Origin: Candidatus Omnitrophota bacterium
Lineage (GTDB): Bacteria > Omnitrophota > Gorgyraeia > Zapsychrales > JANLHA01
Length of the DNA: 32,000 nucleotides
Direction: 5' to 3'
NCBI GenBank assembly: GCA_963662715.1
Contig: OY759724.1
Location: 210,001-242,000, forward strand
Each line of letters starts with the position of its first letter. Positions within the stretch are counted from its first letter, which is position 1. The notes below the pieces were generated by a model. The model saw only the letters and a list, made by a program, of their open reading frames with translations, was not told where the DNA came from and did no database searches. Both the position numbers and the translations under genes were made by a program. Below, in pieces: positions 4,518-28,802 of this stretch.

Positions 4518-4520
4518 AAA

Positions 4521-5375: not shown

Positions 5376-5452
5376 AATTTTTCTGCTTTTTAAATACAGA
5401 TCTTTATAAATCCTCTACAGGATTTCTTGGCTAAATATCAAAATCAGACTCT

Positions 5453-6334: not shown

Positions 6335-6376
6335 GGAACAGCTGCTTATTCGATCAACAAAACTTCACCTCAGTTA

Positions 6377-8568: not shown

Positions 8569-8587
8569 TTTTTCTCCTTTCACCCAT

Positions 8588-9031: not shown

Positions 9032-10801
9032 TCAAGTCTTGGGAAGTGAAAAACTAAAAGTCGACCCGGCCCCCAAAGAACTCTCGGCAGAGACTTGGCC
9101 TCCCTGAGCCTGAACAATATGCTTGACAATAGAGAGCCCCAAACCTGTTCCTCCAAGCTTGCGGGAACGGGCCTTGTCTACCCGGTAGAAGCGCTCAAAG
9201 ACCCGAGGCAGCTCATTAGGACTTATTCCTATACCGGAATCTTTAATAAAAAACACGCAACACTCTTCATTTTCTTTAGCGGAAATTTCCACCCAGCCGT
9301 CCTCCCTGTTGTATTTTATGGCATTCTCTATCAAATTAAAAAATACTTGGGCAAAATACGTCCTGTCTGTCTTCATCTTTGGGAAAGAAGGGAGGATATT
9401 ATTGGTGATTCGAATATTCCGCTGTTCCGCAAGCGGGCCCAGGCTCTCAATTGTCTTTTCAACGATGGCGTAAACATCACAGATTTCCTGATGAAATGTC
9501 AATTTCCCCGACTCTATCCTTGCCAAATCCAATAAATCCGAAATGAGTTGCGCCAGCCTTCCGGCATTGGAATAAATGATTTTTATAAAATCCAAAGCGT
9601 TCTCCCGGTCATCGATGGCTCCGTCTATCAATGTTTCGGCATAACCTTTGATGCTAGCGATCGGGGTGCGCAGCTCATGTGAAACATTGGCGACAAATTC
9701 CTGCCGGATTTTTTCCAGCTTTCTCAAATCCGTAATATCATGAAAAACAAGCACCGCCCCTTCAATTTGCTTATCCCGTACAACCGGGGTAGCGTGAACT
9801 AAAAGCCTCTTCTCTTCTTCGAGGAAAACGGAAATTTCCTGTGTTACAAAACCACTGTGCAGGTTCAGGATCTGGTCGGTGATATGCTGAATCTCAATAT
9901 TCCGAATGACCTCCAGAGGCTTTTTCCCCCGCGGATCCCCCTCCAGGGAAAAAACATCCCTTAAAGGATCGTTAATTAATAAAATACATCCTTTAACATC
10001 AATAACGATCACGCCTTCGAACATACTCAAAAGCACGGCTTCCAGCCGCGACTTGTGCGCCACAACTTCCTCCATACGGGAGGAAATCTGCTCTGACATA
10101 TAGTTGATAAGCCGGGCTAAATCTCCAATCTCATCCGACGAATCGATAAGGACCCGCCTTGATAAATCACCGAAAGCAATGGAACGGGCGACATCAGAGA
10201 CTTCCTTCAAGGGTCTGGAGATAAAGACAGAGGCGGCATATCCTATCAGGAATGCAAAAATAAGGGCCAAAAACAGTCCCAGCAGTAAAAATTTTCTCAA
10301 AGTGTGGGAAATAAGCTGCATTTCAGAAAGAGGCAAAGCTAAACGAAGCACCCCCTTCTCTCCCTTGAAAGAGAACGGATATCCGATATAAAGCATTTGT
10401 TTCTGCAGGGTCGTACTGAAGCGCAGACTCTCTCCAATCCCTCCTCTGAGGGCAGCCTGAACCTCAGGCCGGAAAAGATGATTTTCAATATGCGCAAGAT
10501 CGGCGGCCGCGACATCGGAATCCCCCCAGAGGGTTCCGTCAGGAGCAATGATCGTAACTCTCAGTCCTAAGTCCTGGCCGATGGTGTCCGCCAACTGATC
10601 ATAACCTTCCCTGGAAACAGCCGGCAGACGGCTTTCTAAATATGTGAGACTCAAAGCCGCCTTGCTGATCAAATCGGCCTTAAGACGCTGGTAGGCATAC
10701 TGGGTCAATTTCGTATTAAGAAAAAAATACAAACCGACCAGAACAATGATGACAATCAGCGTGAAAATTATGGTGATTTTATGATGTCGATGGGCTTTCA
10801 T
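9032..10801 (-). CDS. phoR: PhoR-like phosphate-regulon sensor histidine kinase
   Basis: TM helix, about 135 aa of extracytoplasmic region, second TM, HAMP, PAS, H-box SHELRTP, and ATPase boxes NAIKYN, DSGIGI, GGTGLGLSIV. Overlaps the phoB stop by 4 nt (ATGA). Confidence 0.85.
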   Translation of the reverse strand: MKAHRHHKITIIFTLIVIIVLVGLYFFLNTKLTQYAYQRLKADLISKAALSLTYLESRLPAVSREGYDQLADTIGQDLGLRVTIIAPDGTLWGDSDVAAADLAHIENHLFRPEVQAALRGGIGESLRFSTTLQKQMLYIGYPFSFKGEKGVLRLALPLSEMQLISHTLRKFLLLGLFLALIFAFLIGYAASVFISRPLKEVSDVARSIAFGDLSRRVLIDSSDEIGDLARLINYMSEQISSRMEEVVAHKSRLEAVLLSMFEGVIVIDVKGCILLINDPLRDVFSLEGDPRGKKPLEVIRNIEIQHITDQILNLHSGFVTQEISVFLEEEKRLLVHATPVVRDKQIEGAVLVFHDITDLRKLEKIRQEFVANVSHELRTPIASIKGYAETLIDGAIDDRENALDFIKIIYSNAGRLAQLISDLLDLARIESGKLTFHQEICDVYAIVEKTIESLGPLAEQRNIRITNNILPSFPKMKTDRTYFAQVFFNLIENAIKYNREDGWVEISAKENEECCVFFIKDSGIGISPNELPRVFERFYRVDKARSRKLGGTGLGLSIVKHIVQAQGGQVSAESSLGAGSTFSFSLPKT

Positions 10802-11490
10802 GTATCATCTCTCAAACAATACCCGACACCGCGGATAGTTTCAATGAGATGTCCTGCAGATCCGAGTTTTTGACGGAGGCATTTGATATGAGTATCTACA
10901 GTACGGGTTGTGACTTCTGTATTCATCTCCCACACTTCACTTAACAGTTTTTCCCGCGACTGCACCCGCCCTCTCGTCCGCATCAGGTAAACGAGCAGAT
11001 TAAATTCCATAGACGTAAGGACGACGATATTTCCTTTAACAAGAACCCTGTGCCTCGGGATATCGATCACCATGTCGTCCAGTTCCAGGACGGCTTTCTT
11101 TTCCGAATGATCAACGGGATTTCTTTTCAAAACATTTTTGATCCTCAATATCAATTCCCGCACGCTAAAAGGCTTCACGACGTAATCATCCGCCCCCAAC
11201 TCCAACCCCACAACCCGGTCCACTTCTTCTCCCCTCGCCGTCAAAATAATAATAGGGATGGTTGACAGAAGAGCATCGGCCTTGATCGTCCGGCAGGTGT
11301 CAAATCCGTCCATTTTCGGAAGCATGATGTCGAGGATGATCAGATCGATTTCCTCATTATTCAAAGTCTCCAAGGCTTCCTCGCCGGTGATGACGACTGA
11401 GCACTTATACCCGGCCTTCTGCAGATTGTATTTTAAAAGCTTGGAAATATGAAGATCATCTTCAACGACTAAAACGTGTTCGATAGGCAT
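10798..11490 (-). CDS. phoB: PhoB-like OmpR-family response regulator
   Basis: Receiver domain (VVEDD, LIILDIMLPKMDGF, VKPF) plus winged helix (LTSMEFNLLVYLM, VDTHIKCLRQKL, IETIRGVGY). The ORF track opens at 11574, but ATG 11490 has AAAGGAG 8 nt upstream and gives the canonical N-terminus MPIEHVLVVEDD. Confidence 0.9.
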   Translation of the reverse strand: MPIEHVLVVEDDLHISKLLKYNLQKAGYKCSVVITGEEALETLNNEEIDLIILDIMLPKMDGFDTCRTIKADALLSTIPIIILTARGEEVDRVVGLELGADDYVVKPFSVRELILRIKNVLKRNPVDHSEKKAVLELDDMVIDIPRHRVLVKGNIVVLTSMEFNLLVYLMRTRGRVQSREKLLSEVWEMNTEVTTRTVDTHIKCLRQKLGSAGHLIETIRGVGYCLRDDT

Positions 11491-11680
11491 ATATCGCGCT
11501 CCTTTGGAATCTGAAATTGCTATAATCTTAACACAGATTTCAAAAGGGATGCAATAGCTGGGAATGAAGTTCACAAAAATATCACAAACGGAGCTCTTGC
11601 GAATATTTTGTTATCCACAGGGCAAAAACTTCTCACAAATCTATTAAAAAAATATTTCACGAAAATATTTATATATTTAT

Positions 11681-12869: not shown

Positions 12870-14474
12870 TTATTCGATATTACGAAACGGCAGATAATTG
12901 TCTTCGAGGACGACACTGCTTTTTATTTTTTGCCGTTCCTGACCGGCGCAAATACCGGCAAACACAGTCAAAATAATATTGATAGAAAGCAGTTCCAGTA
13001 AATAAGGCGTCTCGGCTGAGTCGCGGAAAACAGTCATGAATTTTGCAAGCCCGAAAAACGGAGACGGGGCGATCCCGTATTTCAAGAATAACGATGTCTC
13101 CGGCCAGACGGGCATGGAGGAGATATAGCCAAAAAGAGGGATAAAAACCCAAAGGACCAACAAAACCACCAGCATGATGATCCGGCTTCTGTGATGCCGG
13201 CTTAAATTAAAATACTCAAGGATCTGCCCGAAAAACCAGGGATATGTCAAAACAAATAACCCGATGATGAAGCACGTCCATAACGGGGACTGGGATACGA
13301 CGCCGTAAAGGATAACGGCCAAAATCACAATAACAGAATAACAAATCAACCAGGCAAAATTACTGCTGTGATCATGGCTATACCCCGAGGAATTTTGTCC
13401 CAGTTTCCTGACTCTCTTCCAGCCTTTCATGAACAGCAGGTAGCTCGGGGTGGCCATGTACACGCCGGCATACCCGAGAAATATTAACAGATAAACAAGA
13501 ATTCCGAGCGACAAGTCTCTTTCCACTGAAAATGGATCCCCCCCCGGGCCATTGAAGAATGTACTTCCGCCGTGAAAGACCGCAACGACAACAATTAACA
13601 ATAATAATTCCGGCTTGCTCAAAAGGGGGTGTTCCGGTTTTGTTATTCTCCTTTGCACCATACGGAACAGGAATATGATAAATGGTGTCTGTATCAAAAA
13701 CTGGAGAAACGGCGGAGGGATGTGCACACCAAAAAACATGTTCACATGCTCAGCCGGGCCGGTGAAGAACACCTCGCCCTGACTGACACTTTCCAGCATC
13801 AGGGAAAGATGCGCATAAGCCGGGAACCATGTTAAATGGTATGTGTAACATCCTTCCAGGGCAAGAAGCAAATGGCTTAAAAAGTACAATATGACAACGA
13901 AAACAAAAGCATTGGCGGCTTTACGTTTAGGATGATTCATCAGTCCGGCTAAAACTCCGAACAGGTTGTAGAGAAATGCGCAGCAGCCAAGGGCAAGATG
14001 AAAAGAGACCAAAACTAAAAGGGCTCGGAAAAAATCCGGAAAAATCCCGGCACTGAAAATCATAACGCAAAGTTGCAGGATAAAAATACAGCCGAATAGC
14101 ACCCACTCAACGGAGACGGCTCCCAGGCAAAGGCCCAAAACCTGGTGACCGGAAGGCGTCGGGGAAACACGGTGAAAATCCAGGGTCCCGCCGGAGACCT
14201 CCCGGGAGGCCATGGAGTAAGCTGACATGGTTCCGAAAAACAGCAGGATATAACCTTCCAGAACGCAGAGGGCAAAAATAAAAAAGGCTTGCCAGGGCCC
14301 CTTCCCTTTCAAGAATTCTTGTTGAGGTGTGGCCTCGATGAAATAGACATAGCAAAAGATCAGGCCTATGATCAGCAGAACAACAATGGCCCGGGAAAAA
14401 ATCTCCGATGGACGAAAACGCTCCCGCCAATTGGCAATAAACAAAGGATTATTGGCGAGGTCCCAGAATGTCAT
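12870..14474 (-). CDS. ABC-2-family-like transporter permease, double length
   Basis: 534-aa ORF with 12 or more hydrophobic helices. Start overlaps the upstream ABC ATPase stop by 4 nt. The N-terminal NPLFIANWRERFR and SREVSGGTLDFHRVSP segments resemble the N-terminal and ExxGTLE-type motifs of ABC-2 permeases. The C-terminal half has no recognisable counterpart. Confidence 0.7.
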   Translation of the reverse strand: MTFWDLANNPLFIANWRERFRPSEIFSRAIVVLLIIGLIFCYVYFIEATPQQEFLKGKGPWQAFFIFALCVLEGYILLFFGTMSAYSMASREVSGGTLDFHRVSPTPSGHQVLGLCLGAVSVEWVLFGCIFILQLCVMIFSAGIFPDFFRALLVLVSFHLALGCCAFLYNLFGVLAGLMNHPKRKAANAFVFVVILYFLSHLLLALEGCYTYHLTWFPAYAHLSLMLESVSQGEVFFTGPAEHVNMFFGVHIPPPFLQFLIQTPFIIFLFRMVQRRITKPEHPLLSKPELLLLIVVVAVFHGGSTFFNGPGGDPFSVERDLSLGILVYLLIFLGYAGVYMATPSYLLFMKGWKRVRKLGQNSSGYSHDHSSNFAWLICYSVIVILAVILYGVVSQSPLWTCFIIGLFVLTYPWFFGQILEYFNLSRHHRSRIIMLVVLLVLWVFIPLFGYISSMPVWPETSLFLKYGIAPSPFFGLAKFMTVFRDSAETPYLLELLSINIILTVFAGICAGQERQKIKSSVVLEDNYLPFRNIE

Positions 14475-15412
14475 GCGACCTCCTTCATGCCCATCTTAAA
14501 GAAAAGATCCTCAACATTGTCCTCTTTACACTGGAACCCGCAGACAGGAATCTTCCGCAGGACAAGCTGGGCCAAAATAAGGCTGGCGTCAGCCGGGCAG
14601 CCGGAAAAATCAGCAAGGAGGCCGCCCTCTTTCCTTTCCTCCACATGCTCCACGCATGAAAAGCCATGCAGCACACTCTTGGCTTCTTGAATCATTTCCT
14701 CCCGCACTTCCGACAAAAAGACAATTAAGCGGCCTTTCGACTGCACGTGTCTGCGGATGTCTTCCACACTCCCCGATACCAGCAACTTCCCCTGCTGCAT
14801 AATGCCTACGGCATTACAAAAATCGCTTAACTCAGATAAAATATGGCTGGAAATAATTACGGCCTTGTTGGCGGAGGCGACGTCTTTCAGGACATCGCGC
14901 ATATCTTTGCGTGCGATAGGATCCAACCCGCTGGCAGGTTCATCGAGGAGGAGGACATCCGGGTCAGGGATGAGGGTTTTGGCCAAAACAAGACGTTGCC
15001 TCATCCCCCGGGATAAATCCCGGATGAAGGCATGGTGTTTCGACTCGAGATTCACCCGGGCGACCCAGGATCTAATTTTTTTTGCCCGTTCTCCCGAAGG
15101 GATATTATAGGCGGCGGCAAAAACGTCCAGATACTCCCACACTTTAAGATGTTCGTATACGGGAGGGAAATCCGGCATGTACCCCACTCTATTTAAAGCT
15201 TTCTGCCGCTCCAGCTCAAGGTCATAACCCAGAACTTTTATGTCCCCGTAAGTCGGTTCTATAATCCCGGCAAGAGCTTTGATCGTTGATGTCTTGCCGG
15301 CCCCGTTAGGCCCGACTAATCCAAAAATCTGACCGGCGCTGACATCCAGGTCCAAATCATGAACCGCATTTGTGTTTTCATAATCTACGCGAAGTGAATT
15401 GACTTTTATCAT
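14471..15412 (-). CDS. ABC transporter ATP-binding protein (ABC-2/CcmA-type) with about 90-aa C-terminal extension
   Basis: Walker A GPNGAGKTS, signature LSRGMRQRL, Walker B LLLDEPASGLD, H-loop SSHIL. Confidence 0.9.
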   Translation of the reverse strand: MIKVNSLRVDYENTNAVHDLDLDVSAGQIFGLVGPNGAGKTSTIKALAGIIEPTYGDIKVLGYDLELERQKALNRVGYMPDFPPVYEHLKVWEYLDVFAAAYNIPSGERAKKIRSWVARVNLESKHHAFIRDLSRGMRQRLVLAKTLIPDPDVLLLDEPASGLDPIARKDMRDVLKDVASANKAVIISSHILSELSDFCNAVGIMQQGKLLVSGSVEDIRRHVQSKGRLIVFLSEVREEMIQEAKSVLHGFSCVEHVEERKEGGLLADFSGCPADASLILAQLVLRKIPVCGFQCKEDNVEDLFFKMGMKEVA

Positions 15413-16071: not shown

Positions 16072-16743
16072 CTACAACCCTTCGGAAATTTTTTTCAACA
16101 GTGTGTGTTCCAGGTCATCAAAAGATCCGGGTAAGATATCTCCGTCCTGGGGATAATACGATGCCGCCAACAACTGTCTTTTGAACGACTCATCAATCAT
16201 TCTTAAGGGGAAAAGCTTTTTCCCGTAACAATAAATATCAAAATAAACCACTTGCTGCGCCGGATTGACGATTTCTATGAGTTCAAAATCCGTATTAGGG
16301 AATTTGCTGTTAGAATAATATTCCTGTCCGCCGATAAAAAAAATCTTGTCCTTCTCAACCTCAAAGAAGTATTCGGCCCCCTCATCTTCCAGTTCAGGGA
16401 ACCCGACCATTCGTTCACTCCGGCAATGGGTCACTCTGACTTTTCCGGCCCCCAAGGCAGCCTGCAATTCCAGGATCCGGTTGATATTATCTTTAACATT
16501 ACGGAAATACACCCATAAAAATATTCCGATATAAAGCCCTACCACGGCAAAAGCTAAATAACCTAATCCCGGATCGTGCTGCGCTTGGCGTAAAGCCAGC
16601 ATCGTCCCCCCCACAAGGCCGAACAACACCAAGATAAGGGTCAGACGGAAATAACGGTCCTTCTGCTTTAACAGGTAACTCATTTCCTTGTTAAGCACTT
16701 CCCGCTCTTTAATATCCAGGTCTCTTGAAAAGCAATGTAGCAT
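16072..16743 (-). CDS. hypothetical membrane protein (2 TM plus cytoplasmic domain)
   Basis: 223-aa ORF with two hydrophobic helices (LTLILVLFGLVGGTMLAL, LAFAVVGLYIGIFLWVYF) followed by a soluble domain of about 140 aa. No family recognised and no clear RBS. Confidence 0.55.
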   Translation of the reverse strand: MLHCFSRDLDIKEREVLNKEMSYLLKQKDRYFRLTLILVLFGLVGGTMLALRQAQHDPGLGYLAFAVVGLYIGIFLWVYFRNVKDNINRILELQAALGAGKVRVTHCRSERMVGFPELEDEGAEYFFEVEKDKIFFIGGQEYYSNSKFPNTDFELIEIVNPAQQVVYFDIYCYGKKLFPLRMIDESFKRQLLAASYYPQDGDILPGSFDDLEHTLLKKISEGL

Positions 16744-17227
16744 CTCTATATTTTTGTTAACAAATCTTTTGATTATTTCTCGACGCTTATATAAAAATCC
16801 TGAATGCCGATACGATGCGTTTTTTATCTAAAACGACTGAACCGGTTCGTCTCCCGGGCCTAAACTCCCGGGCCGGCCCAAAGGCACAATTGTCCATGAA
16901 TAAGATACATTCTTTGCTCGACAGGGTTTTCCGGAGCGAAGTCGGAAAGGATATCTGTTTCTTGAGGGAAAATGATGCGTAAGATTTCATGGCATATTTG
17001 TGTCATATCTGTTATGACAGCCTTCATTTATTGTATCTCCTTTATGGACAAAAACAAGCACAATATAAAATCCGCCTTATCTGAATTCTTTCGTGGCCTC
17101 TGTTGTCCCCCGTGCCGCACAAACAGCACGCCACAGGGCTCCCGTCCCCGGGTCTTCCCCGACAAATGCCGAGAAAAACAGGATGGACGGAAGAATCCCG
17201 CTTTTTCCAGTCAAAGATTATGAATTA

Positions 17228-18595
17228 TTACTTTCCCGCAGAAGAGGCATAAAGGAAAAGGGCTTTTCTCTGTGAAGAATCTTTGTATCGTGATACGGCT
17301 TGCGGGGAAGGAAGTTGAATGCTTTTGATATTCTTGCTTTTCAGATATTCTCTGGCGGCCTTATTTAATATCAGTTTCTTGTCTTGATACCCTATGATAA
17401 GCAACTGCGGGTTTTTCTTGCAGATCTTCCGGAGCAACGTCAAATTCATTCTATGGGATAACACTTTCTCATCCGAAGAAAGGCTGTTCTTAACTTTTTT
17501 GACCTTGCCGTCCGTCCGGATATAGACACTGCCCGGATAGGACTGCTGATGAATGATTATGCCGTTATCTGCCGCTAACTGAATATCCATGGCCTTGTCA
17601 CGGACGTCCGGGAGGGGACCTTTCTCATCCTGCTGCAATAAGGCCACGGCTCCCAAAATAACGGCAAAATCCCCTAACTGTGAAGGGACGATCCGGCAAT
17701 GGTCAACGCCTTTAAAAAAGGGATCTGCCGCGGAAACGCGCTTGACCTTCGGAAGCATATATTTGCCGCAGGCCTCTATCAACCCTCCGCCGAAGACGAT
17801 CATCTCGGGATTAAAAATATGGCGTAACGAAATACACGCTTTCCCCAAAACGACACAGACCTCATCAAGAATACGAAGGACATCCGGGTCCTTCCGCTTA
17901 ATAGCCTCAGCAATAACCGAACTTTTAACGAGGCCTTTTTTTTCTTTGACTAAACTCTTAATACCAGACTTCTTCTTTTTTCTAACAACGCTCCAGATCT
18001 CCCTTTCAATGGCCCGCCGGCTGGCTAAAGCTTCCAAAGAACCGTAAATGCCGGCGTTTTCCTTTCTGCTGTTATAGTCTAGAATCATATGCCCCAGTTC
18101 CCCTGCCGCCCCCTGTGCGCCGGAAACGAGTCTGCCGTCTATGATAATGGCTCCGCCGACACCGGTTCCGGGGAAAAGCCCCAGCACATGCCGCACATCC
18201 TTAGCAACCCCTAACCATTTTTCTCCCAGCAGGCCTAGGTTAACATCATTCTCCAAAATAACCTTAACACCAAAGTCCTTCTTCAGCTTTCTGCCCAGAG
18301 GGAAGCGGCTTAAATTCGTATTCGGAGTAACAAGAACTTCCGTATGATCCGGTTTGACGATTCCGGGTATCCCGACCCCTATACCGACAAAGCGGGCCTC
18401 CGGGACAGGCGACGCCTTCATCAATTCCCGGATCAAGGTCTTTATGGCCTGATATATTTGGGGGGACGTTGCATTTTGCGGAGTCTGGATCTTTTTCCGG
18501 CAGAGCAATTGCCCTTCCTGGGTGACCAGTCCCGCGGATATTTTCGTGCCGCCGATATCCACGCCTATATATACTGACTCTTTCATCACTGACAT
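17228..18595 (-). CDS. ROK-family sugar kinase fused to a C-terminal Mth938-like (DUF498) domain
   Basis: N-terminal GVDIGGTK, ENDVNLGLLGE and GTGVGGAIIIDGRLVSGAQGAAGELGHM are ROK/ASKHA motifs. Residues from about 335 to 455 (YPGSVYIRTDGKV...SHRMNLTLL...PQLLIIGYQDKKL...IQLPSPQAVSRYKD...ALFLYASS) follow the Mth938/DUF498 pattern. Start could be ATG 18586 instead of 18595. Confidence 0.85.
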   Translation of the reverse strand: MSVMKESVYIGVDIGGTKISAGLVTQEGQLLCRKKIQTPQNATSPQIYQAIKTLIRELMKASPVPEARFVGIGVGIPGIVKPDHTEVLVTPNTNLSRFPLGRKLKKDFGVKVILENDVNLGLLGEKWLGVAKDVRHVLGLFPGTGVGGAIIIDGRLVSGAQGAAGELGHMILDYNSRKENAGIYGSLEALASRRAIEREIWSVVRKKKKSGIKSLVKEKKGLVKSSVIAEAIKRKDPDVLRILDEVCVVLGKACISLRHIFNPEMIVFGGGLIEACGKYMLPKVKRVSAADPFFKGVDHCRIVPSQLGDFAVILGAVALLQQDEKGPLPDVRDKAMDIQLAADNGIIIHQQSYPGSVYIRTDGKVKKVKNSLSSDEKVLSHRMNLTLLRKICKKNPQLLIIGYQDKKLILNKAAREYLKSKNIKSIQLPSPQAVSRYKDSSQRKALFLYASSAGK

Positions 18596-18599
18596 CCTA

Positions 18600-19943
18600 T
18601 TAGACTGTTTCTTCTTCGGTTATCTTTAATTGTAATTCTTTTTGGAAAACTAATCTAAACAAATCGGATTTTTTTTCCACCCGTGCCTTTTCCCACTCGG
18701 AGAAATCATCTGCCCTTATCTCAAGAACAACCTGTCTTTTATCCACCCTTGCCCGCAAAGCTTTGACCGAATTCACGTGACGGCTGTCAAACCCGTCGGC
18801 CAATCTGAGAAGGGAAGCCAGTTTCTTCAGTTCCTCCTTCTTCCCGTCAGACAAATCCGAATAATATTTATGGGTGTTTTTCGGCAGAGCCCTTCTATGG
18901 TACCGTGCAACCAGCGCCACAATGACTTTCTCATCATAACTCAAAGGTAAATTGTAGGATTTCAGAATCATATCCCTGGACGTTTTATGATGACGGATCC
19001 GCCCTTTGATCCAGCCGATATCATGCAACAGGGAAGCCGACTGCAACAACAGGCGATGTCTGGGGGACAGCTGATGGAGGTCCGCCAGTCCGTCAAACAG
19101 CTGCAGCGTCAGTTGGGTCACCTGATGAGAATGCTCCTTTTCATATTCACACGATCTGGCCAGTTTTAAAACCTCCTGGATAACATCTTTTTCACTGGCC
19201 TGCCTCCAGACCTGGCGATTGATCTCATCTAGACTTTGACCTGTCTCAATGGAACGGATAATATCTTTAGGGAACTTTTTCTGCGTCATGGCCCGGATAA
19301 CGCTCTTAAGAGGATAGGAAATACGTCTGTTGCTGACACTGATCTTACGCCCGTCAATATCCATGACAACATATGAAGCGCGCGGGTCTCCGTCAAAAGG
19401 ACGTCCGACACTTCCTGGATTAACGAACCAGACATTCTTGATCTTTTTCAAAAAAAATTTGTGGGTGTGCCCGCATAAAATCAGGTCGGCATGACTTGTC
19501 TGCGCGAGCTGTTCAAATCTCTTCACTGGAGTATTGTCCTGCAAAGGTTCATCCATAGACTCCGGACTCCCGTGGGTCAATAAAATGTTCAACCCTTCTC
19601 TGGTGCATCGGACAGAACACGGCAAGTTCTGCAGATAATTCCGGGCTGGTTTTGACAGCTGTCGATACGTCCACTTGAATGAAAAATATTTTGACGGGGT
19701 CTTGCTGTTTTTCCATTTTCGCTGTTTTTGGGGGAATCTCAGGACATTCAGGTCGTAATTTCCGGCAATGCTGACCTGAGCTTGTTTCCGAATGACCTGA
19801 ATAACCTTCTGGGGCGCAGGTCCGTAGCCGACATAGTCGCCCAAAAACCATATCTCTTGAACGGACTGCGAACGGATATCACGCAGGACAGCCATTAAGG
19901 CTGGTAAATTGGCATGGGCATCAGCTAAAACGGCGACCTTCAT
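18600..19943 (-). CDS. metallophosphoesterase (YfcE/Metallophos_2-like) fused to a Ppx/GppA-type C-terminal HD module
   Basis: N-terminal half has DAHAN, GDYVGYG, GNYD, LTHGSP, CGHTH and NPGSVGRP (calcineurin-like phosphoesterase metal ligands). The C-terminal half is collinear with the C-terminus of the ppx product in this window (LHDIGW..HHKTS..VARYHRRALPKNTH..LASLLRLADGFD versus LHEIGM..HHKHS..VARYHRGAVPQKTH..LSSIIRLANALD). Confidence 0.8.
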   Translation of the reverse strand: MKVAVLADAHANLPALMAVLRDIRSQSVQEIWFLGDYVGYGPAPQKVIQVIRKQAQVSIAGNYDLNVLRFPQKQRKWKNSKTPSKYFSFKWTYRQLSKPARNYLQNLPCSVRCTREGLNILLTHGSPESMDEPLQDNTPVKRFEQLAQTSHADLILCGHTHKFFLKKIKNVWFVNPGSVGRPFDGDPRASYVVMDIDGRKISVSNRRISYPLKSVIRAMTQKKFPKDIIRSIETGQSLDEINRQVWRQASEKDVIQEVLKLARSCEYEKEHSHQVTQLTLQLFDGLADLHQLSPRHRLLLQSASLLHDIGWIKGRIRHHKTSRDMILKSYNLPLSYDEKVIVALVARYHRRALPKNTHKYYSDLSDGKKEELKKLASLLRLADGFDSRHVNSVKALRARVDKRQVVLEIRADDFSEWEKARVEKKSDLFRLVFQKELQLKITEEETV

Positions 19944-20848
19944 AATCCCCCGAACCAGGCATAGACATATTCACACATATTCTCAAAAGTGCGTTGCTCT
20001 TTCGCCTGTTGCCATCTTTCAAAAAATTGAATATATACGGTTTCTTTTTCCTTTTGAAGATACCCTTTGAGGAGTTTCCACAAATTTCGGGCAGCCTTTC
20101 CTTTCCCCGGGCTCCTTTGCTCCAAAATCATTATCTCTCGCAACCAAAGATCATAGTCATGAAAAACCCCCAATTGTCTGTGAAAAGTCAGCACGCTGTC
20201 GCTAAAGACATCCAACCCCTCATCGTACAGCAAAGATAATCCTTCCAGCGTATATCTCAGGTGCTTGGCGGCAATACGCATGTTGTGCAGGTCGTTGACC
20301 TTTTCCGGATATTGGGCGATGCCGTCAAATTCAACTAAACCAACGGCTCTTTTTTTGATTTTCTTATAAGCAAGCTTATAAATATCCGTTTCGCCCAAGT
20401 CCCTCACTCCGTCCCTGCTGTAATTCTCTATGTCCCGCCAAACCCGTTTGAGCTTTTTCTTGGCCAGCGCGTCGCCCATCCGGCGCTGCAACCGCTTTTT
20501 TTTATCATTTAATACAAACAAGGCCTCTTCCAGTATTTCCAGTTGTTCTTTCCTGTCGGTTCTTGTCCGGTACCCGTCCAAAAAAATAACAAACACATCC
20601 AAATCCCGGCCGGCAGACGTCGCTCCGGCGAGTTTACGCAGCTGATCATTCCAGGCCTCCCGCCGTTTGCGGGGGAAGACGTCCTTCCATATCCACAGGG
20701 CATTTCGCAGCCGTCTGATATTAACGCGCAGTTGATGCAGCGATTCGACATCCCCTGCCTCAACCCCCGGGATGGCCTTCTCAATCCTTTTGACATGCTT
20801 CAAAAGGCATTGCTCCGTTAATTGTCGTGTTAATGTTTTATCCTTCAT
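19940..20848 (-). CDS. CHAD domain-containing protein
   Basis: 302-aa helical ORF with the two CHAD signature helices LHQLRVNIRRLRNAL and LHNMRIAAKHLRYTLE. Overlaps ppk1 by 11 nt and the downstream gene by 4 nt. Confidence 0.75.
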   Translation of the reverse strand: MKDKTLTRQLTEQCLLKHVKRIEKAIPGVEAGDVESLHQLRVNIRRLRNALWIWKDVFPRKRREAWNDQLRKLAGATSAGRDLDVFVIFLDGYRTRTDRKEQLEILEEALFVLNDKKKRLQRRMGDALAKKKLKRVWRDIENYSRDGVRDLGETDIYKLAYKKIKKRAVGLVEFDGIAQYPEKVNDLHNMRIAAKHLRYTLEGLSLLYDEGLDVFSDSVLTFHRQLGVFHDYDLWLREIMILEQRSPGKGKAARNLWKLLKGYLQKEKETVYIQFFERWQQAKEQRTFENMCEYVYAWFGGL

Positions 20849-22871
20849 AATGTTTGATCATTTCATGCTGAATATCTTTATCATCTTCTTTGCCTTTGAG
20901 TTTTTCGTATTTCCCGTCAGGACAAAGGCGCCAGGACTTCTTGTGGTCTTTCCAATAGAGCTCCAGCAGGGACTTTAAATGCTCTTTGATATCTTCCTTG
21001 TATATTTCAAACAACAGCTCAACGCGCCCGTCAAAGTTTCTTCTCATCCAATCAGCCGATGATAAGAAAATCCGGGCATTATCATTGTTGTTGAACAAAA
21101 ACATCCTCGTGTGCTCCAGAAAACGGCCGACGGTACTTTTAACCTCAATATTATCACTGAGCCCCTGAACTTCCGGGATTAAACAACAGATGCCTCTCAC
21201 GATGAGCTTCACCTTAACGCCTGCCTTTGACGCGGAATACAGTTTTTCAATAATACGGGGATCTTCCAGCGAATTCATTTTGGCCAGGATCAGGCCGTTT
21301 TTATTTTTCTTCTGAAATTTCATCTCCCGTTCAATGAGAGAAAACAAATATTCGCGCAGGTCATTGGGGGCAGAAATGATCCGCTCCCATCCTGTCGGCA
21401 TGGAATAGCCGGTAATAACATTAAAAATTTCCGACACATCCCTGGCAAAGTCATCATTGGCGGTAAAATAGCCGATATCCGTATAAATTCTCGCAGTTTT
21501 CTCGTTATAATTTCCCGTAGAAAGATGCACATATCTTTGAATCTGTGCGTTCTCTTCCCGGACGATCAACGCCATCTTGGAATGAACCTTATATCCGGGG
21601 ATACCGTAAATGACATGGCACCCGGCTTCTTCCAGCTCCCGGCTCCATTTGATATTGCTCTCTTCGTCAAATCTGGCCTTAATTTCCACAAGAATCGTCA
21701 CCTGTTTTCGGTTCGCAGCCGCCTCTTTAAGGGCATCAATAATCGCCGAATCATTATTCGTGCGATACAGCGTCATTTTGATCGCCAGGACATGCGGATC
21801 TTTCGCGGCTGTGCGGATAAGGTCCACTGTGGGGTAAAAAGACTGAAACGGGAGATGCGTTATAAAATCGCCCTCTTTCATTCTTTCAAAAATATTCTCA
21901 TACTCAATCTTTCCGGGTAAATATCCCGGGAAACAAAACTCCGGCCGGTCAACCTGCCTGATCAGATCAAACAGCAGCGTCAAGTCCAGATCGTTATCAA
22001 GGAACAACACATCTTCCTTGGGAAACTCCAGGCCTTCCGAAAGCATCGCCAACACACTGGCATTGGCGACCTGTTCGGCCTGAACGCTGACAACATGAGC
22101 CACCTTTCTCTTTTTGACCTCTCCTTCAATGGTCTTAAGAAGATTGGGAGAGAACTCTTCGTCCACATCCAGCTCACTGTCCCGCATGACCCGGAACAGG
22201 AAAAAATTCTTAATCTTATATCCTTTAAAAAAAGACCCGAGATGCTGCCGGATAATGTTATCCACCAGAAAAAACACGTAATCCTTCTTGCCCGACGGCA
22301 ACCGGATAACCCGCGGGACATTCTGCGGAACCGGAACGATCGCCAGATGTTCGCTCCCTTTCTGTTTGAGGCCGACCGCAAAAGCCATGGTCTTTGAAGG
22401 CAGAATCGGGAAAGGGTGTCCGGGGTCTACGGCTAAAGGGGTGATAATAGGGTAAAGGATCGTTTGGAAATATTCCTCAATAAACCTTTTTTGTTCTTTG
22501 TTCAAATCCTTATACTGCTTGACATATATCCGGTTCTTTTCCAGTTCCGGGGAAAACACCTTTTGATATATTTCATAAGATTTTTTAATAAGGTTCGTGG
22601 AGACCCTCTTTGTCTCATGCAGGACATCAACGGAATAATGCCCGAAAGCATCAACCTGGTTTACCTGAGCGCTTATCAAATTCTGCAGACCGGCGATACG
22701 CACCATAAAAAATTCGTCAAAATTATTGGCAAAAATCGCCAGAAATTTTATGCGCTCCAGCAGAGGATGCGACGGGTCCAGACATTCCTCCAGAACCCGG
22801 GCGTTGAACTGCAGCCAGCTTAAATCCCGGGGAATAAACCGGCTGTCCTCACGTATTTCTAAATGGGTCAT
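20838..22871 (-). CDS. ppk1: polyphosphate kinase 1
   Basis: 677-aa ORF with N-terminal FIPRDLSWLQFNARVLEE...FLAIFANNFDEFFMVRIA, and PLD-like C-terminal repeats YKVHSKMALIV and GRFLEHTRMFLF, all characteristic of PPK1. Confidence 0.95.
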   Translation of the reverse strand: MTHLEIREDSRFIPRDLSWLQFNARVLEECLDPSHPLLERIKFLAIFANNFDEFFMVRIAGLQNLISAQVNQVDAFGHYSVDVLHETKRVSTNLIKKSYEIYQKVFSPELEKNRIYVKQYKDLNKEQKRFIEEYFQTILYPIITPLAVDPGHPFPILPSKTMAFAVGLKQKGSEHLAIVPVPQNVPRVIRLPSGKKDYVFFLVDNIIRQHLGSFFKGYKIKNFFLFRVMRDSELDVDEEFSPNLLKTIEGEVKKRKVAHVVSVQAEQVANASVLAMLSEGLEFPKEDVLFLDNDLDLTLLFDLIRQVDRPEFCFPGYLPGKIEYENIFERMKEGDFITHLPFQSFYPTVDLIRTAAKDPHVLAIKMTLYRTNNDSAIIDALKEAAANRKQVTILVEIKARFDEESNIKWSRELEEAGCHVIYGIPGYKVHSKMALIVREENAQIQRYVHLSTGNYNEKTARIYTDIGYFTANDDFARDVSEIFNVITGYSMPTGWERIISAPNDLREYLFSLIEREMKFQKKNKNGLILAKMNSLEDPRIIEKLYSASKAGVKVKLIVRGICCLIPEVQGLSDNIEVKSTVGRFLEHTRMFLFNNNDNARIFLSSADWMRRNFDGRVELLFEIYKEDIKEHLKSLLELYWKDHKKSWRLCPDGKYEKLKGKEDDKDIQHEMIKHYEG

Positions 22872-22873
22872 GG

Positions 22874-24415
22874 TTAAACAGGCTTTCTGATAACAAGTTT
22901 AATATCATTCCCGGAAAGCTCCTCAAAGAGCCGCTTCCGTTCGTTAAAATAGACGTTTTCCAGCGTCATCCCTTCATTCGTATAGGCGATCAGGGTAATG
23001 TCCCCTTTAGCGTTCCTTTTAAAATCGACTTTCTTTATCTTTTGCTTTTCCGAGCCATCCAGCGCATTGGCCAGCCTTATGATAGAGCTCAGCTTTTGAA
23101 CGACGAGCTGTTCTTCATTAGGAAGGCTGCCGTAAAGAACGTGCGTTTTCTGCGGGACAGCCCCCCGATGATAGCGTGCCACACAGGCAATGCATTTGAT
23201 CTCATGCGCGGTCAGCCGAAAAAGGCTCAAAGCGTTGATGATATACTCACTGTGTTTATGATGCCCCCGCGGATTGATGAGCATTCCTATTTCATGCAAA
23301 TACGCGGCCAACCTCAAGTACAATAAATGCCGGTCCTCTAACCCCAGCGCCGCCCCGACGTGGTTAAAAATCTCTTCAGACAAATAGGAGATATATTTCG
23401 CGTGTTTCAAATCCGAATTATACTTGCGGCACAAAAATTTTGCCACCGAAACAAGCTGATTCTCCCGGTGGTATTTCTGGTCCAATTCAAGCCCCAGGAT
23501 CGTATGCGCCAACAGGGCCTCCGAAAGGGATGTTTCGAGGATATAAATAGACCGCTTGGAGGTCAACTTGAAAAGCTTGTGCAGAATCACAGCATACCCG
23601 TCCAGAGAACTGGCCGTATCCGTGGAAATATTGTACTTCTGGGCCAAGTCATCCAGGTTCCCGCTCGTGACAAGGGAAAGGAATTCTTTGGACTCCCTGA
23701 ACTGCAGCTGAAAAAAATTGCTGCCCAGCTTCTTATGCGAAAGGATATTATGAAGAGCCACGGAATAGCTTTCATCGACCAGGATCACATCATCTATGTG
23801 GATATGGAAAAAAAACTTTTTGATGTTGAGAAGCTCATGTTCGACATACTCTTCCAGGGCCTCGTAAGTTTGCTTCTGGCTTCCGTCAATTCTGTTTTTA
23901 AATTTTTTCAATCTCAACGTTCCTATCGGAAGGCCTTGAGTGACCAGAGCAAAACCTTTCTCCAGCATCGACAAATCCAGGCTCCCCGCCCCCAGTTCGG
24001 CAATGATAAGATTTTTTTCATTGATCGGATAGGACTTCTTAAGCCGGTAAGACAGGTACGCATCAATATAATAAACGACATCACCGACATTTAAAACTTC
24101 AATGTCCAGCCCGGTCCTCCTTCGGATGGTATCCAGGAAAATGTCTTTATTTTCCGCCTCCCTTACCGCAGTCGTTGCGATGACCTTGATATCCGTCACC
24201 CGGTAATCAGAAATAACTTTCTTATACTGATTTAAGACATGAATACTCTGATTGACGATATCCTGAGTAATACGCCCCTGATAAAAAGTGCTTATTCCAA
24301 AACCGATGATATTCTTCAACGACTCTAGAATCTTGAATTCCTCTCCGCTCTTTTCCCCAATAATAAGTTTGGTGGAATTCGATCCGATGTCAATAACAGC
24401 TGCTCTCATAATCAT
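22874..24415 (-). CDS. ppx: Ppx/GppA-family exopolyphosphatase
   Basis: ASKHA motifs AVIDIGSNSTKLII and ELGAGSLDLS, plus a C-terminal HD module (LHEIGM, HHKHS, ARYHR). Stop is 2 nt before the ppk1 ATG. Start may be the third codon (ATG 24409), which has better GAGGA spacing. Confidence 0.9.
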   Translation of the reverse strand: MIMRAAVIDIGSNSTKLIIGEKSGEEFKILESLKNIIGFGISTFYQGRITQDIVNQSIHVLNQYKKVISDYRVTDIKVIATTAVREAENKDIFLDTIRRRTGLDIEVLNVGDVVYYIDAYLSYRLKKSYPINEKNLIIAELGAGSLDLSMLEKGFALVTQGLPIGTLRLKKFKNRIDGSQKQTYEALEEYVEHELLNIKKFFFHIHIDDVILVDESYSVALHNILSHKKLGSNFFQLQFRESKEFLSLVTSGNLDDLAQKYNISTDTASSLDGYAVILHKLFKLTSKRSIYILETSLSEALLAHTILGLELDQKYHRENQLVSVAKFLCRKYNSDLKHAKYISYLSEEIFNHVGAALGLEDRHLLYLRLAAYLHEIGMLINPRGHHKHSEYIINALSLFRLTAHEIKCIACVARYHRGAVPQKTHVLYGSLPNEEQLVVQKLSSIIRLANALDGSEKQKIKKVDFKRNAKGDITLIAYTNEGMTLENVYFNERKRLFEELSGNDIKLVIRKPV

Positions 24416-24963: not shown

Positions 24964-25698
24964 CTACTGGCGTTTCCTGATACAATTCCTTCCGGCCCGT
25001 TTGGCATCATACAAGGCTTCATCGGTAAGTTTAAGCAGTTTATTGACAGTCTCAACGTTGCCCTCATTAGAAGAGATGCCGAAACTGGCCGTGACTTTGA
25101 TCTTTTTCTCTTTATAGTAAAACTGCGTCTTCTCGATAATAGTTTTTAATTTATTGGCGAGGATTTCCGCGTTATTCATATTCGTATGCATACACACAAC
25201 GAGAAACTCTTCTCCGCCGAAACGTCCGAAATAGTCCGTTCTCCGGATATTATTTAAGATTTTCCAGGAAAAGTTCTGCAGGACATAATCACCGGCGTCA
25301 TGCCCGTATTTATCATTAATCTTTTTAAAATGGTCCAGATCAATCAAGATCACGGAAAAGGGGAATTTATACCTCTGCCCCGACAAAAAGGCGCTCTCGA
25401 GGAGCTCTATGATATATCTTCGATTAAATATTTCCGTCAAAAAATCCGTGCGGCTCGCTTTCTCCAGGAGGTCTTTTGTTATGTTTAATTCATCAATTAA
25501 ATTCAGCAAGTAAATCGTGATCACCGGCGTTAAGACAATCGGGGCCATAATGGAAATATAGATAGCCCCTCTAAATCCGATTGTGTCGAGTCTGAAAATA
25601 ATAAAGATAAACGTCGTGAGCAACACGGAAATCAGGACGCAAATGATCGTAATAAGAATGGATTTGAGCAAAGTAACTTTTGTGCGCTTGAAAAGCAT
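24964..25698 (-). CDS. membrane-anchored GGDEF diguanylate cyclase
   Basis: Two to three N-terminal TM helices, then a GGDEF domain with active-site GGEEF and an RxxD I-site (RRTD) five residues upstream. Confidence 0.9.
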   Translation of the reverse strand: MLFKRTKVTLLKSILITIICVLISVLLTTFIFIIFRLDTIGFRGAIYISIMAPIVLTPVITIYLLNLIDELNITKDLLEKASRTDFLTEIFNRRYIIELLESAFLSGQRYKFPFSVILIDLDHFKKINDKYGHDAGDYVLQNFSWKILNNIRRTDYFGRFGGEEFLVVCMHTNMNNAEILANKLKTIIEKTQFYYKEKKIKVTASFGISSNEGNVETVNKLLKLTDEALYDAKRAGRNCIRKRQ

Positions 25699-26336: not shown

Positions 26337-28802
26337 TTATTGCAGTCCCTGCACCAGACAACGGTAGGAAAAAAGGGCCAGGATATAAATTCCTGCGGCC
26401 AATATCAATATGGCATTAAACCCCAGGAATTGAGCGATAAGAATCGCCAGCATCGAAGCAAAGACGCTGAACCCGCTATTAATCCCCCAGGCCCATGGGA
26501 TCGCTTCCTCCACCTTTCGCCCTATCAAATGCAGTCCCAGGGGGAAATACAGCCCCAGGAGAAAGCCCAGCGGCAGCAGGAAGACACCGACAATCCCCAC
26601 CCGCACCAAAAAGGCCAGACCAAGCGCCTGCTCAGTTAACGAGGGGCCGATAGTCATGAGAAAGACGAGATAGCCGACAAGCAGGGCTGTGGCCGTATAA
26701 ATCAGTTTCAAGTGGCTCTTAAAAATCTTCTCCAATACAGGCAACGCATAACTCCCGATACCCGCCGATATAAGCAACATGGCCAGGATAATGCTGATAG
26801 AATAAATCGGGCTGCCCAACAACAAAACGAACTTCTGCATCATGGGGATCTCAATAAACATAAATCCCCACCCCAGGCAGGCAAAGTAGGAAATAAACGG
26901 CAGGATGCTCGCGGAAGGCAGGGCCCGGATGTTGGTTCTTTTAAAAAGCCACAACGGCCATAAAATAAAGAGCAAAATAAAGACAAGGGCCTGAAGCAAC
27001 ACAATGATCTGCGTCATAAACATGATGGATCCCAAATGGTGATGGTGCGAAACTTTAAAAGGGTTGAACGAATTCAGTTTGTAATATTTATAAAAGAACG
27101 GGGCATCATCGGTCACAACAGAAATATCATAGGGATAGTTTTTTCGCCATTTGGCTAAACGGTCATTTTGAAAGTCCCGGGCATACTGGCTGAAATAATT
27201 GACGGGGTGTTTGTTGATTTTTGTCCAAATATCCCCGGGATAAACGGGGACCGTCCGGTGCTTCCTGAAATAATCAAAAACTTTTGCGGTTTCCGCCGCT
27301 GTGAAAGGGGTCTTCTTAATTAAGATAATCGACCACCAGGTCACATGATCCCCGATAATAATATGCTCCCAGGGCCTGGCGGCACCGGTTTCCTTTAAAG
27401 CGTCAAGGGCGATAGCATAGAGACGCAAGGTCTCCCGGGGCTGCTCCGGGAACAGCCAGCGGTTAAAATTAACGACGCCGTCGTCTTTAATAACGCGCAA
27501 ATAATCCAGGAGGGCATTCTTCGTATAAAGGTAACTTTCGGCATAGGCATACGCTCCGGAGGTTAACCCCGAAAACGTATCAACCCCGTTCAAAACAATC
27601 AAATCAAAAGAATCCGGGGGCAAATTCTTCACGAGATGACGGCCGTCCACGTTGAAAACTTTTGTCTGGTCCAGAGTATAAACGCCTCCCGAGTATTCAT
27701 ACATCCTTCCTCCGGGAGACAGGGCCTGCACAATGGCAGGATTAATTTCCGCACCAAGAATTGTCCCGGCTCCGTGACTCTTCGCCATGAAAATATCCCG
27801 CCCTCCGCCGGTGCCGATGATAACGACATCCGGACGATCAAAAAGCACATAGGGCACTTCCATGCCCTGGCTGAACAATCTGAGCTTTGACCGGTGTTCG
27901 GCCAGGCCTTCCGGAGAGAGGCGGTAAATAGGCGCGCCGGCCAAATAATTCGTTGTTATGTAGGAAAATTCCGGCCGGGGGATGACATTGATTTCAAAGG
28001 TGCCTATCGATGTTGAGGACAACAGTTCCTGAGCCTGCGGATCAACCATCCTGAAGATATCGGTCCGGCCCAAAGGATGCCATTGCGACAAAAGACGTTC
28101 GTACTGATGCGGCTTATAGGCTCCCGGGATCCATTCCCACCCTTTATTCTTGTCGATCGTATAATCGTCTGTTTCCGGGACCGTCATAAAAATAAAAGGG
28201 ATGGCCACCAGAAAAATGACAGCCAGTATGATTCTTTTCCTCGGGATCAGGGTCCAGAAAGCCAAAAATAGACACACCCAGCAGAGCAACAGCAGCGAAT
28301 GTGTCACCTGAAAGGAATTGATCAGGAAAAAAAACATGAAGGCCCCGGTCCCGGCCCCCAGCAGATCAAAAAAATACAATCTTGACGACCGCGTGGCGTG
28401 AAACGTAAACACATAAACGATGAGGAATCCTATCAGGGTAAAAGGAACGGCAAACAACGTGTAGGCCCATAACAAAACGGACATCGAAGAGAAACTCACC
28501 AATATCTGAGCAACGTCGTCCACGCAAATCGGAAGATATCCGATCCCCACAGTACAAATATAACCGTAGCAGGCCATCTTGATAAGAGCATAGCCGATAA
28601 CCTTATCCGGCTTAAGTCTGGAAAGATAATCTTTGAGGATAAAAACGATATTAGCCCCTATCCCGTAACCCAGGATAGCAAACGGGATGACAATATAGAC
28701 CACATGGTTCCAGGTCTTGAGGCTGAGAATCCTGGTTAGAAAAAGTTCCAGATTGATCGCGTAAAACGAGACAAAACAGATAATGAAATAGAGTTTAAAC
28801 AC
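26337..28802 (-). CDS. polytopic membrane protein with central spermidine-synthase-like (class I methyltransferase-fold) domain
   Basis: 821-aa ORF (GTG start) with about 7 TM helices, then VVIIGTGGGRDIFMAKSHGAGTILGAEINPAIV and FDLIVLNGVD...LRVIKDDGVVNF (SpeE-like nucleotide-binding and acidic-loop motifs), then a soluble region and about 6 more TM helices. Confidence 0.8.
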   Translation of the reverse strand: MFKLYFIICFVSFYAINLELFLTRILSLKTWNHVVYIVIPFAILGYGIGANIVFILKDYLSRLKPDKVIGYALIKMACYGYICTVGIGYLPICVDDVAQILVSFSSMSVLLWAYTLFAVPFTLIGFLIVYVFTFHATRSSRLYFFDLLGAGTGAFMFFFLINSFQVTHSLLLLCWVCLFLAFWTLIPRKRIILAVIFLVAIPFIFMTVPETDDYTIDKNKGWEWIPGAYKPHQYERLLSQWHPLGRTDIFRMVDPQAQELLSSTSIGTFEINVIPRPEFSYITTNYLAGAPIYRLSPEGLAEHRSKLRLFSQGMEVPYVLFDRPDVVIIGTGGGRDIFMAKSHGAGTILGAEINPAIVQALSPGGRMYEYSGGVYTLDQTKVFNVDGRHLVKNLPPDSFDLIVLNGVDTFSGLTSGAYAYAESYLYTKNALLDYLRVIKDDGVVNFNRWLFPEQPRETLRLYAIALDALKETGAARPWEHIIIGDHVTWWSIILIKKTPFTAAETAKVFDYFRKHRTVPVYPGDIWTKINKHPVNYFSQYARDFQNDRLAKWRKNYPYDISVVTDDAPFFYKYYKLNSFNPFKVSHHHHLGSIMFMTQIIVLLQALVFILLFILWPLWLFKRTNIRALPSASILPFISYFACLGWGFMFIEIPMMQKFVLLLGSPIYSISIILAMLLISAGIGSYALPVLEKIFKSHLKLIYTATALLVGYLVFLMTIGPSLTEQALGLAFLVRVGIVGVFLLPLGFLLGLYFPLGLHLIGRKVEEAIPWAWGINSGFSVFASMLAILIAQFLGFNAILILAAGIYILALFSYRCLVQGLQ

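Follow-up and report, generated by a model that had tools for sequence, protein, structure and literature searches.

Direct phosphorylation of sugars from polyphosphate (polyP) has been documented mainly in one compact clade of the ROK family, the polyphosphate glucokinases (PPGKs), and characterised polyP-glucokinases do not carry the CXCGXXGCXE motif (PMC6406325). CHAD proteins localise to polyP granules (PMC9239181, with reference to Tumlirsch & Jendrossek 2017 and to Lorenzo-Orts 2019). One preprint names 'DUF498-like' among possible ligand-binding domains only. Here we describe a gene that brings these subjects together in a 32,000-nucleotide stretch of DNA from a Candidatus Omnitrophota bacterium (contig OY759724.1), which is referred to as the window and within which all positions are given. 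The gene encodes a ROK sugar kinase fused to an Mth938/DUF498-like domain and is located in an operon for polyP metabolism. In the product, a ROK hexokinase has acquired a new accessory domain, along with a genomic role that is both new and conserved; a few uncultured phyla carry the fusion commonly, and no characterisation of it was found. The literature searched contained no Mth938-kinase fusion, no ROK kinase in ppk1/ppx operons and no polyP role for DUF498. We propose, as the likeliest reading and with a probability of about 45%, that the protein is a hexose kinase dedicated to the polyP module which takes polyP directly as its phosphoryl donor, alone or together with ATP, and which would have converged on the activity of the PPGKs.

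Domains of the fused kinase

The gene and the parts of its product were located as follows.

17228..18595, minus strand: ROK-Mth938/DUF498 kinase gene, 455 aa with an ATG start (open reading frame translation and Pfam)
17630..18571, minus strand: ROK sugar-kinase domain, residues 9-322 (Pfam PF00480)
18032..18103, minus strand: ExGH and degenerate zinc loop, residues 165-188 (GELGHMILDYNSRKENAGIYGSLE; alignment to 2QM1 and 3VGK)
17252..17584, minus strand: Mth938/DUF498-like domain, residues 338-448 (Pfam PF04430, fold search and profile comparison)

Analysis of the protein with Pfam revealed a match to PF00480 between residues 9 and 322 (E=2.1e-60; 205 bits against a cut-off of 22.9). The domain encoded DxGGT (D13, G15, T17, K18), the catalytic Asp motif ENDVN (N116, D117), GTGxGG (143-148) and GGG (269-271), and all of these residues were invariant across 73 fused relatives with the exception of K18, which was conserved in at least 90%. 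The ExGH motif (E166-G168-H169) was also invariant in the 73 relatives, and E166, H169 and E188 were assigned as putative sugar ligands by analogy with other ROK kinases. Because the catalytic and putative sugar residues are invariant in this set, the kinase is predicted to be almost certainly active. The ATG at 18595 lies 4 nt beyond the stop codon of the preceding gene, and no clear Shine-Dalgarno sequence accompanies it; the in-frame M4 (nt 18586) is preceded by AGGA 8 nt upstream, is a better fit to the N-termini of homologues (MKK..Y.G.D) and may be the true start (region 18584-18599, minus strand).

An AlphaFold2 model of the full protein, built from the 73 relatives, had a mean predicted local distance difference test score (pLDDT) of 88.6 and a predicted template modelling score of 0.80. 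It showed a disordered linker at residues 326-337 followed by a separate alpha/beta domain at 338-448, which agreed with the boundary near residue 335 (nt 17593) given by a first-pass annotation made from the sequence alone. That annotation had proposed a ROK kinase with an Mth938-like tail and had suggested profile searches for both parts; the two domains were confirmed. PF04430 matched residues 341-438 of the full-length protein with E=1.4e-7 and 31.9 bits, just under the 33-bit cut-off, and when the C-terminal 123 aa were scanned alone the score was 35.2 bits, above it. All 27 aligned C-terminal domains of relatives matched PF04430 (best E=2.5e-16). The domain modelled alone (pLDDT 88.1) gave nine best Foldseek matches in the PDB that were all Mth938-like, with template modelling (TM) scores of 0.66-0.78; its PDB matches were 1IHN, 2CYJ, 2FI9, 2GM2, human AAMDC 2AB1, 3CPK, 2K2E and 2FVT. 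Alignment of the fused domains with their free-standing relatives in hhalign gave a probability of 100% (E=2.7e-41).

Both parts of the protein are basic. The kinase domain of the window protein has a net charge of +15, and the isoelectric point (pI) of the ROK domain was ~9.6 in the window-type family compared with 5.2 in actinobacterial and firmicute glucokinases. The window C-terminal domain also has a net charge of +15, over 123 aa; the fused domains had a median pI of 10.0 and a net charge of +13, against 8.5 and +2 in free-standing relatives. The fused domains, including that of the window, retained YIRADGKxKK (YIRxDGKxKK in the window protein), CKKxP and A..YN..RKA (A..Y...RKA in the window protein). 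GTSH and HVTC were both lost in 89 of 101 kinase-fused domains, the window protein included, and the free-standing and CHAD-fused members mostly share FG..DG..KRKKKLSK..YGTSH...GxGQxG...TPxA..N...HVTC. A cysteine-phosphatase-like site formed by the conserved C392, R360 and D362 of the tail was considered and rejected, as the helix-loop-strand order was wrong and only weak Foldseek matches to PFA-DSP/PRL phosphatases were obtained (probability <=0.5, 46 columns).

When 1.84 billion representative proteins were searched with a profile built from the fused domain, only 813 matched at E<=1e-3. Among the best 150 of these, the 147 newly listed proteins comprised 48 ROK fusions, 84 short proteins (free-standing DUF498 or fragments) and 15 that were neither. 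Four of these 15 were fusions of CHAD and DUF498 (P0157, P0164, P0176 and P0193; Pfam CHAD E down to 2e-48). The best free-standing DUF498 relative, P0121, was 49% identical to a fused domain and was encoded convergently to a PPX-PPK1-HD operon; it was rejected as one half of a split ROK/DUF498 gene pair since there was no ROK coding sequence upstream. At the locus of P0176 (L093, 8001-10763), the gene for the 622-aa CHAD-DUF498 fusion is convergent to a PfkB-family sugar kinase gene, so that a second, unrelated sugar-kinase family occurs beside the same DUF498 branch.

The polyphosphate operon and its relatives

Upstream of the kinase gene, four further genes of the same operon were found.

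22874..24415, minus strand: operon gene 1, Ppx/GppA exopolyphosphatase (PPX; Pfam)
20838..22871, minus strand: operon gene 2, polyphosphate kinase 1 (PPK1) with all four PPK1 domains (Pfam)
19940..20848, minus strand: operon gene 3, CHAD-domain protein, net charge +16 (Pfam)
18600..19943, minus strand: operon gene 4, 447-aa protein with Metallophos_2 (YfcE-like) and Ppx-GppA_III/HD domains, net charge +26 (Pfam and NCBIfam)

The order of the five genes, all on the same strand, was therefore PPX, PPK1, CHAD, the metallophosphoesterase/HD (MPE/HD) gene and ROK. Neighbouring genes were separated by 2 nt at the first junction, overlapped by 11 nt and by 4 nt at the next two and were separated by 4 nt at the last. 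The ROK gene is the last cistron because a spacer of 484 nt comes after it. The first-pass annotation had described a ppx-ppk1-CHAD operon ending in the ROK gene; the order and the terminal position were right, but the MPE/HD gene at 18600-19943 had been omitted. The kinase gene shares its strand and tight spacing with ppx, ppk1 and the CHAD gene, and the cluster is conserved in relatives. The CHAD and MPE/HD proteins are basic, while PPK1 (net charge -3) and the two proteins encoded downstream are not. The MPE/HD protein is a candidate for an additional polyP- or nucleotide-phosphate hydrolase. Its gene was conserved between CHAD and ROK in L001, L002, L004, L005 and L081-L084, and the HD part alone (about 190-200 aa) was encoded in L088 and L091.

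The closest homologues of the window kinase were at most 52% identical, came from metagenome-assembled genomes (MAGs) of Omnitrophota, Elusimicrobiota and 'Aureabacteria' and were labelled only 'ROK family protein' or 'glucokinase' in the databases. The first-pass annotation was not aware of a description of the fusion, and no such description was found in the literature searched; the fusion is not rare, however, as it was present in 72 of the 120 best homologues, in Omnitrophota, Planctomycetota (L002, L005-L007), Elusimicrobiota and 'Aureabacteria'. A profile scan of contigs with the full-length family alignment, which responds to generic ROK patterns, gave mostly unrelated ROK glucokinases among the matches listed, and these were used as the outgroup. 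It also recovered at least eight close relatives, five of them fused (L001, L002, L005-L007), two unfused (L003, L004) and one truncated (L008).

Comparison of the gene neighbourhoods revealed the same PPX-PPK1-CHAD-MPE/HD-ROK order in L001, where the kinase is fused and retains the zinc cysteines (Cys+), and at the loci of P0030 and P0027, where it is fused and Cys-less. PPX-PPK1-CHAD-ROK was found for P0054 (Cys-less, unfused) and P0043 (Cys-less, fused). The ROK gene was convergent to an adjacent polyP operon in L002, L003, L004, L005 and the P0078 locus, all Cys+. PPK1 was encoded beside the kinase in 11 of 13 informative close-family loci and in one of 50 outgroup ROK loci of actinobacterial, firmicute and other origin (Fisher p=1.5e-9, indicative only as the loci are phylogenetically non-independent). 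An Elusimicrobia MAG (L087, 7119-11338) encoded a fused Cys+ kinase, P0051, after PPK2 and B12-binding radical-SAM genes and two genes from PPK2; this locus lacked PPX-PPK1-CHAD, the polyP link persisting through another polyP kinase family. P0117, a close unfused relative, was the sole case with no polyP gene within 10 kb.

More distant ROK genes of Pirellulaceae, Fibrobacterota and Kiritimatiellia also adjoined PPX and PPK1, co-directionally and in ROK-PPX-PPK1 order, with PPK1 present in 8 of 15 loci, and comprised both Cys+ and Cys-less forms. Since fused and unfused, Cys+ and Cys-less forms all adjoin ppx/ppk1, the polyP link is, as far as gene neighbourhoods indicate, a property of a broad ROK clade that is independent of cysteine loss and of fusion. 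Unfused ROK genes directly beside PPX and/or PPK1 were seen in L011, L015, L025, L029, L047 and L064 (also L013, L021 and L038), hosted by Pirellulaceae, other Planctomycetota, Fibrobacterota, Kiritimatiellia and an Erysipelotrichaceae MAG. Most of these were in ROK-PPX-PPK1 order on one strand, and several of the encoded proteins had lost the zinc cysteines independently, e.g. GPLDGAGNPGTLE. No description of this wider unfused ROK-PPX/PPK1 association was present in the literature searched.

Residues 165-192 of the window protein read GELGH-MILDYNSRKENAGIYGSLEALAS. Alignment with 2QM1 (..dctcgkrgcle..) and 3VGK (..lcgcgsqgcwe..) showed that the three zinc cysteines are replaced by E179, A181 and S186, as the first-pass annotation had noted from the absence of Cys; the region reads ENAGIYGSLE and does not contain CxCGxxGCxE. 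H169 and E188 are retained, the loop is of full length with its G182/G185/E188 scaffold intact, and the region was modelled with a pLDDT of ~93-95. Among 101 fused proteins, CxCGNxGCLE was kept in 55 and absent in 46, and all four combinations of fused or unfused with Cys+ or Cys-less occurred among relatives. When 219 ROK domains were arranged by neighbour joining, the order of the leaves, taken alone and without support values, suggested that the fusion is older than the cysteine loss and that the window-type Cys-less proteins form a crown group with both fused and unfused members. It further suggests that the zinc cysteines were lost at least three times within the polyP-linked ROK clade, the additional losses being one in the P0043/P0039/P0122 group and one or more in the planctomycete-type ROKs. 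Two fused Planctomycetaceae proteins (L006, 6365-7852; L007, 172-1689) and a truncated Thermogutta relative without a C-terminal-domain match (L008, 2951-4051) carried EIGHIISQIPCENWRNNITTAKHKQRTKSS... after ExGH in place of the zinc loop, which is possibly a third way of remodelling this site; polyP genes were not found in the available flanks of these three loci.

The absence of the cysteines had been taken by the first-pass annotation as a mark of PPGKs. It is true of PPGKs, yet it is not diagnostic: the ROK structure 3R8E likewise lacks a cysteine at the aligned position. The Cys+ relatives (CxCGNxGCLE) of L001, L002, L004, L005 and L088 are encoded in the same polyP operons, so the motif does not predict the polyP link, and the window protein falls far short of the PPGK model.

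Phosphoryl donor and substrate

As its placement beside polyP genes is conserved, the role of the kinase is probably tied to polyP turnover. It is the gene context and the CHAD-DUF498 fusions, rather than the zinc-motif argument, that strengthen the polyP hypothesis. In the proposed mechanism, the kinase would be co-transcribed with PPX, PPK1, the CHAD granule protein and the phosphoesterase/HD protein and would act at or near polyP. Phosphoryl groups stored in polyP would finally be transferred to glucose, giving glucose-6-phosphate. The basic Mth938-like tail would be a docking or ligand-binding module that keeps the enzyme attached to polyP or to the granule machinery of CHAD and PPK1, and docking of this kind is the most plausible function of the tail whether the donor is used directly or indirectly. 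We infer glucose as the substrate and polyP as the donor, together with the docking role. With the odds somewhat against it, one branch of Mth938/DUF498, which occurs fused to ROK, fused to CHAD and free-standing beside ppx-ppk1, could be a module of polyP systems.

Relatedness to PPGK was judged by the NCBIfam PPGK model, by sequence ranking against the PDB and by fold ranking. The PPGK model NF045942 (polyphosphate--glucose phosphotransferase) reached 58.5 bits where its cut-off requires 250, and it aligned only residues 10-181 to positions 3-165 of 242. The best NCBIfam match was TIGR00744 (ROK_glcA_fam), with 174.5 bits, below its cut-off of 260, and an end-to-end alignment of residues 10-321 to positions 1-309 of 318; the window protein is glucokinase-like, its membership of TIGR00744 not being certified. 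The best PDB sequence matches were the ATP-dependent glucokinases 2QM1 (1.9e-38) and 3VGK, which also led the fold search. The match to the polyP/ATP glucomannokinase 1WOQ was restricted to residues 5-179 by sequence and was ranked 50 by fold. Homology to PPGK is thus detectable over the N-terminal half only and ends near residue 180, just beyond GH. The window kinase is not a member of the PPGK family.

Several observations weigh against direct use of polyP. The kinase is nearest to ATP-dependent glucokinases by sequence and fold and fails the PPGK model; the motifs by which ATP-dependent ROK kinases bind nucleotides are all present, so nothing in the sequence demands polyP. There was no polyP-binding signature that could be scored, and no sequence feature separates polyP-using from ATP-using ROK kinases. 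Cysteine loss, given the shared context of the Cys+ relatives, is uninformative, and the planctomycete-type polyP-linked ROKs are not basic (pI ~6.2). Several neighbourhoods (L002-L005, L088) are convergent and not co-transcribed. To our knowledge, the Mth938 fold has had no established biochemical function in any organism since its structure of 2001. PPK2 or CHAD was near only three of 80 near-identical soil loci of one free-standing DUF498 subgroup, and another free-standing DUF498 protein, P0123, had unrelated neighbours and no polyP genes, so the polyP link is not general to DUF498. The contig of P0131 was too short to be counted here.

One alternative, to which we give a sizeable minority chance, is that the enzyme is a glucokinase using only ATP or another nucleoside triphosphate (NTP). 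PPK1, whose reaction is reversible, would run in reverse (polyP + ADP -> ATP) and feed the kinase locally on the granule, with the C-terminal domain and CHAD keeping the enzymes together; the net chemistry would be the same and polyP would never enter the active site of the kinase. The reversibility of PPK1 and its almost constant presence as the neighbour fit this account, as do the ATP-dependent glucokinases that head both rankings, the intact ATP-type motifs and the position of the protein outside the PPGK family. It leaves unexplained the strongly basic kinase domain of the family and the repeated loss of the zinc site, which is also seen in true PPGKs, and P0051 is encoded two genes from PPK2 and not beside PPK1.

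It is improbable that the protein is a housekeeping ATP-glucokinase whose adjacency to polyP genes has no mechanistic meaning and whose tail serves oligomerisation, stability or the like. ROK glucokinases are ubiquitous, the close unfused relative P0117 lacks polyP genes nearby and most of the sampled free-standing DUF498 genes are not near any; against this, the neighbourhood is conserved over at least four phyla in co-directional and convergent orders alike, and members of the tail's DUF498 branch occur both in an independent fusion with CHAD and free-standing beside PPX-PPK1-HD. Equally improbable is a substrate other than glucose, be it a different hexose, an amino sugar or a sugar acid, or a main role in sensing sugar instead of phosphorylating it. 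In favour of this, the TIGR00744 score is below its cut-off, the sequence of a ROK protein is a poor guide to its specificity and zinc-site loss could reshape the sugar pocket. Against it, no NCBIfam family scores higher than the glucokinase model, whose alignment runs from end to end, there is no variation at N116, D117, E166, H169 and E188 or in the phosphate motifs, and the protein has no DNA-binding domain.

Surroundings of the operon and comparison with known systems

Additionally, a phosphate-regulon-like cluster with phoBR-like and pstSCAB-phoU genes was found between 2998 and 11574 (minus strand), on the same strand as the polyP operon and about 5.6 kb downstream of it, such that about 22 kb of the window is given to phosphate uptake, sensing and storage. 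The genes of this cluster and the gene immediately upstream of the polyP operon were as follows.

10798-11574, minus strand: OmpR-type response regulator
9032-10801, minus strand: HAMP/PAS histidine kinase
7294-8583, minus strand: Porin_5 porin
3759-7249, minus strand: PstS/PstC/PstA/PstB-like ABC transporter genes
2998-3693, minus strand: PhoU
24964-25698, minus strand: GGDEF diguanylate cyclase gene, immediately upstream of the polyP operon and ~550 nt from it

Three open reading frames (ORFs) on the minus strand, at 26337-28802 (821 aa), 12870-14474 (534 aa) and 16072-16743 (223 aa), had no Pfam match, and the 534-aa and 223-aa ORFs had no NCBIfam match either. The 534-aa ORF overlaps the stop codon of a gene at 14471-15412 that encodes an ABC ATPase, whose permease partner it may be. 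The 484-nt spacer downstream of the operon (16744-17227) is unusually long and contains a G+C-rich stretch. A 55-aa ORF within it (17027-16860, minus strand), preceded by the strong Shine-Dalgarno sequence AAGGAGA, was rejected as a gene since none of the related loci conserved it. The window gave no match in scans for Rfam families and tRNAs.

If the DUF498 branch binds polyP or a partner in the polyP machinery, the window kinase would represent a second, independently evolved bacterial route, distinct from PPGK, for charging glucose from polyP. A second polyP-wired kinase lineage, ranging over Omnitrophota, Planctomycetota, Elusimicrobiota and related groups, would widen the view of polyP as an energy and phosphate reserve in uncultured bacteria, and could be a source of new ATP-free kinases for cell-free biomanufacturing, in which PPGKs are already used. 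Such binding by the DUF498 branch would also provide a testable biochemical role for a fold that includes human AAMDC; NDUFAF3 is likewise a protein of the Mth938/DUF498 type. That a single DUF498 branch is linked to polyP genes in three different ways offers an experimental handle on a fold lacking a function.

The described proteins closest to the kinase domain are the ATP-dependent ROK glucokinases (Enterococcus faecalis 2QM1, Streptomyces griseus GlkA 3VGK and the Bacillus subtilis GlcK type), with which it shares ~30% identity in an end-to-end alignment, the same fold (TM 0.86-0.89 normalised to target), the phosphate-1, phosphate-2 and adenosine motifs, the catalytic Asp and the ExGH/E ligands. 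Unlike these enzymes, it has substituted zinc cysteines, a pI of 9.6 compared with ~5.2, an extra Mth938-like domain of 120 aa and a location in a polyP operon. The PPGK/PPGMK enzymes (Arthrobacter 1WOQ, M. tuberculosis PPGK, Anabaena All1371 and Methylomonas polyP-Glk) belong to the same ROK superfamily, also lack CXCGXXGCXE and are likewise linked to polyP metabolism, and a net reaction similar to theirs is proposed for the window kinase. They are short, however (267 aa in 1WOQ, compared with 455 aa), and the window kinase differs from them in that the zinc loop and the following helices are retained and the ligands alone are changed. No characterised PPGK with an Mth938 domain was reported in the literature searched.

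The tail has the fold of the Mth938/DUF498 proteins (Mth938 1IHN, PH1505 2CYJ, XCC1710 2GM2 and AAMDC 2AB1) but differs from them in being fused to a kinase and very basic, and it lacks GTSH and HVTC, two motifs that its closest relatives, whether free-standing or fused to CHAD, conserve. With the CHAD 'phosin' proteins and classical ppk-ppx operons, the window operon has ppx, ppk1 and CHAD in common; unlike these, it also includes genes for a sugar kinase and for a phosphoesterase/HD protein, and in some relatives CHAD itself is joined directly to a DUF498 domain of the same branch as the tail.

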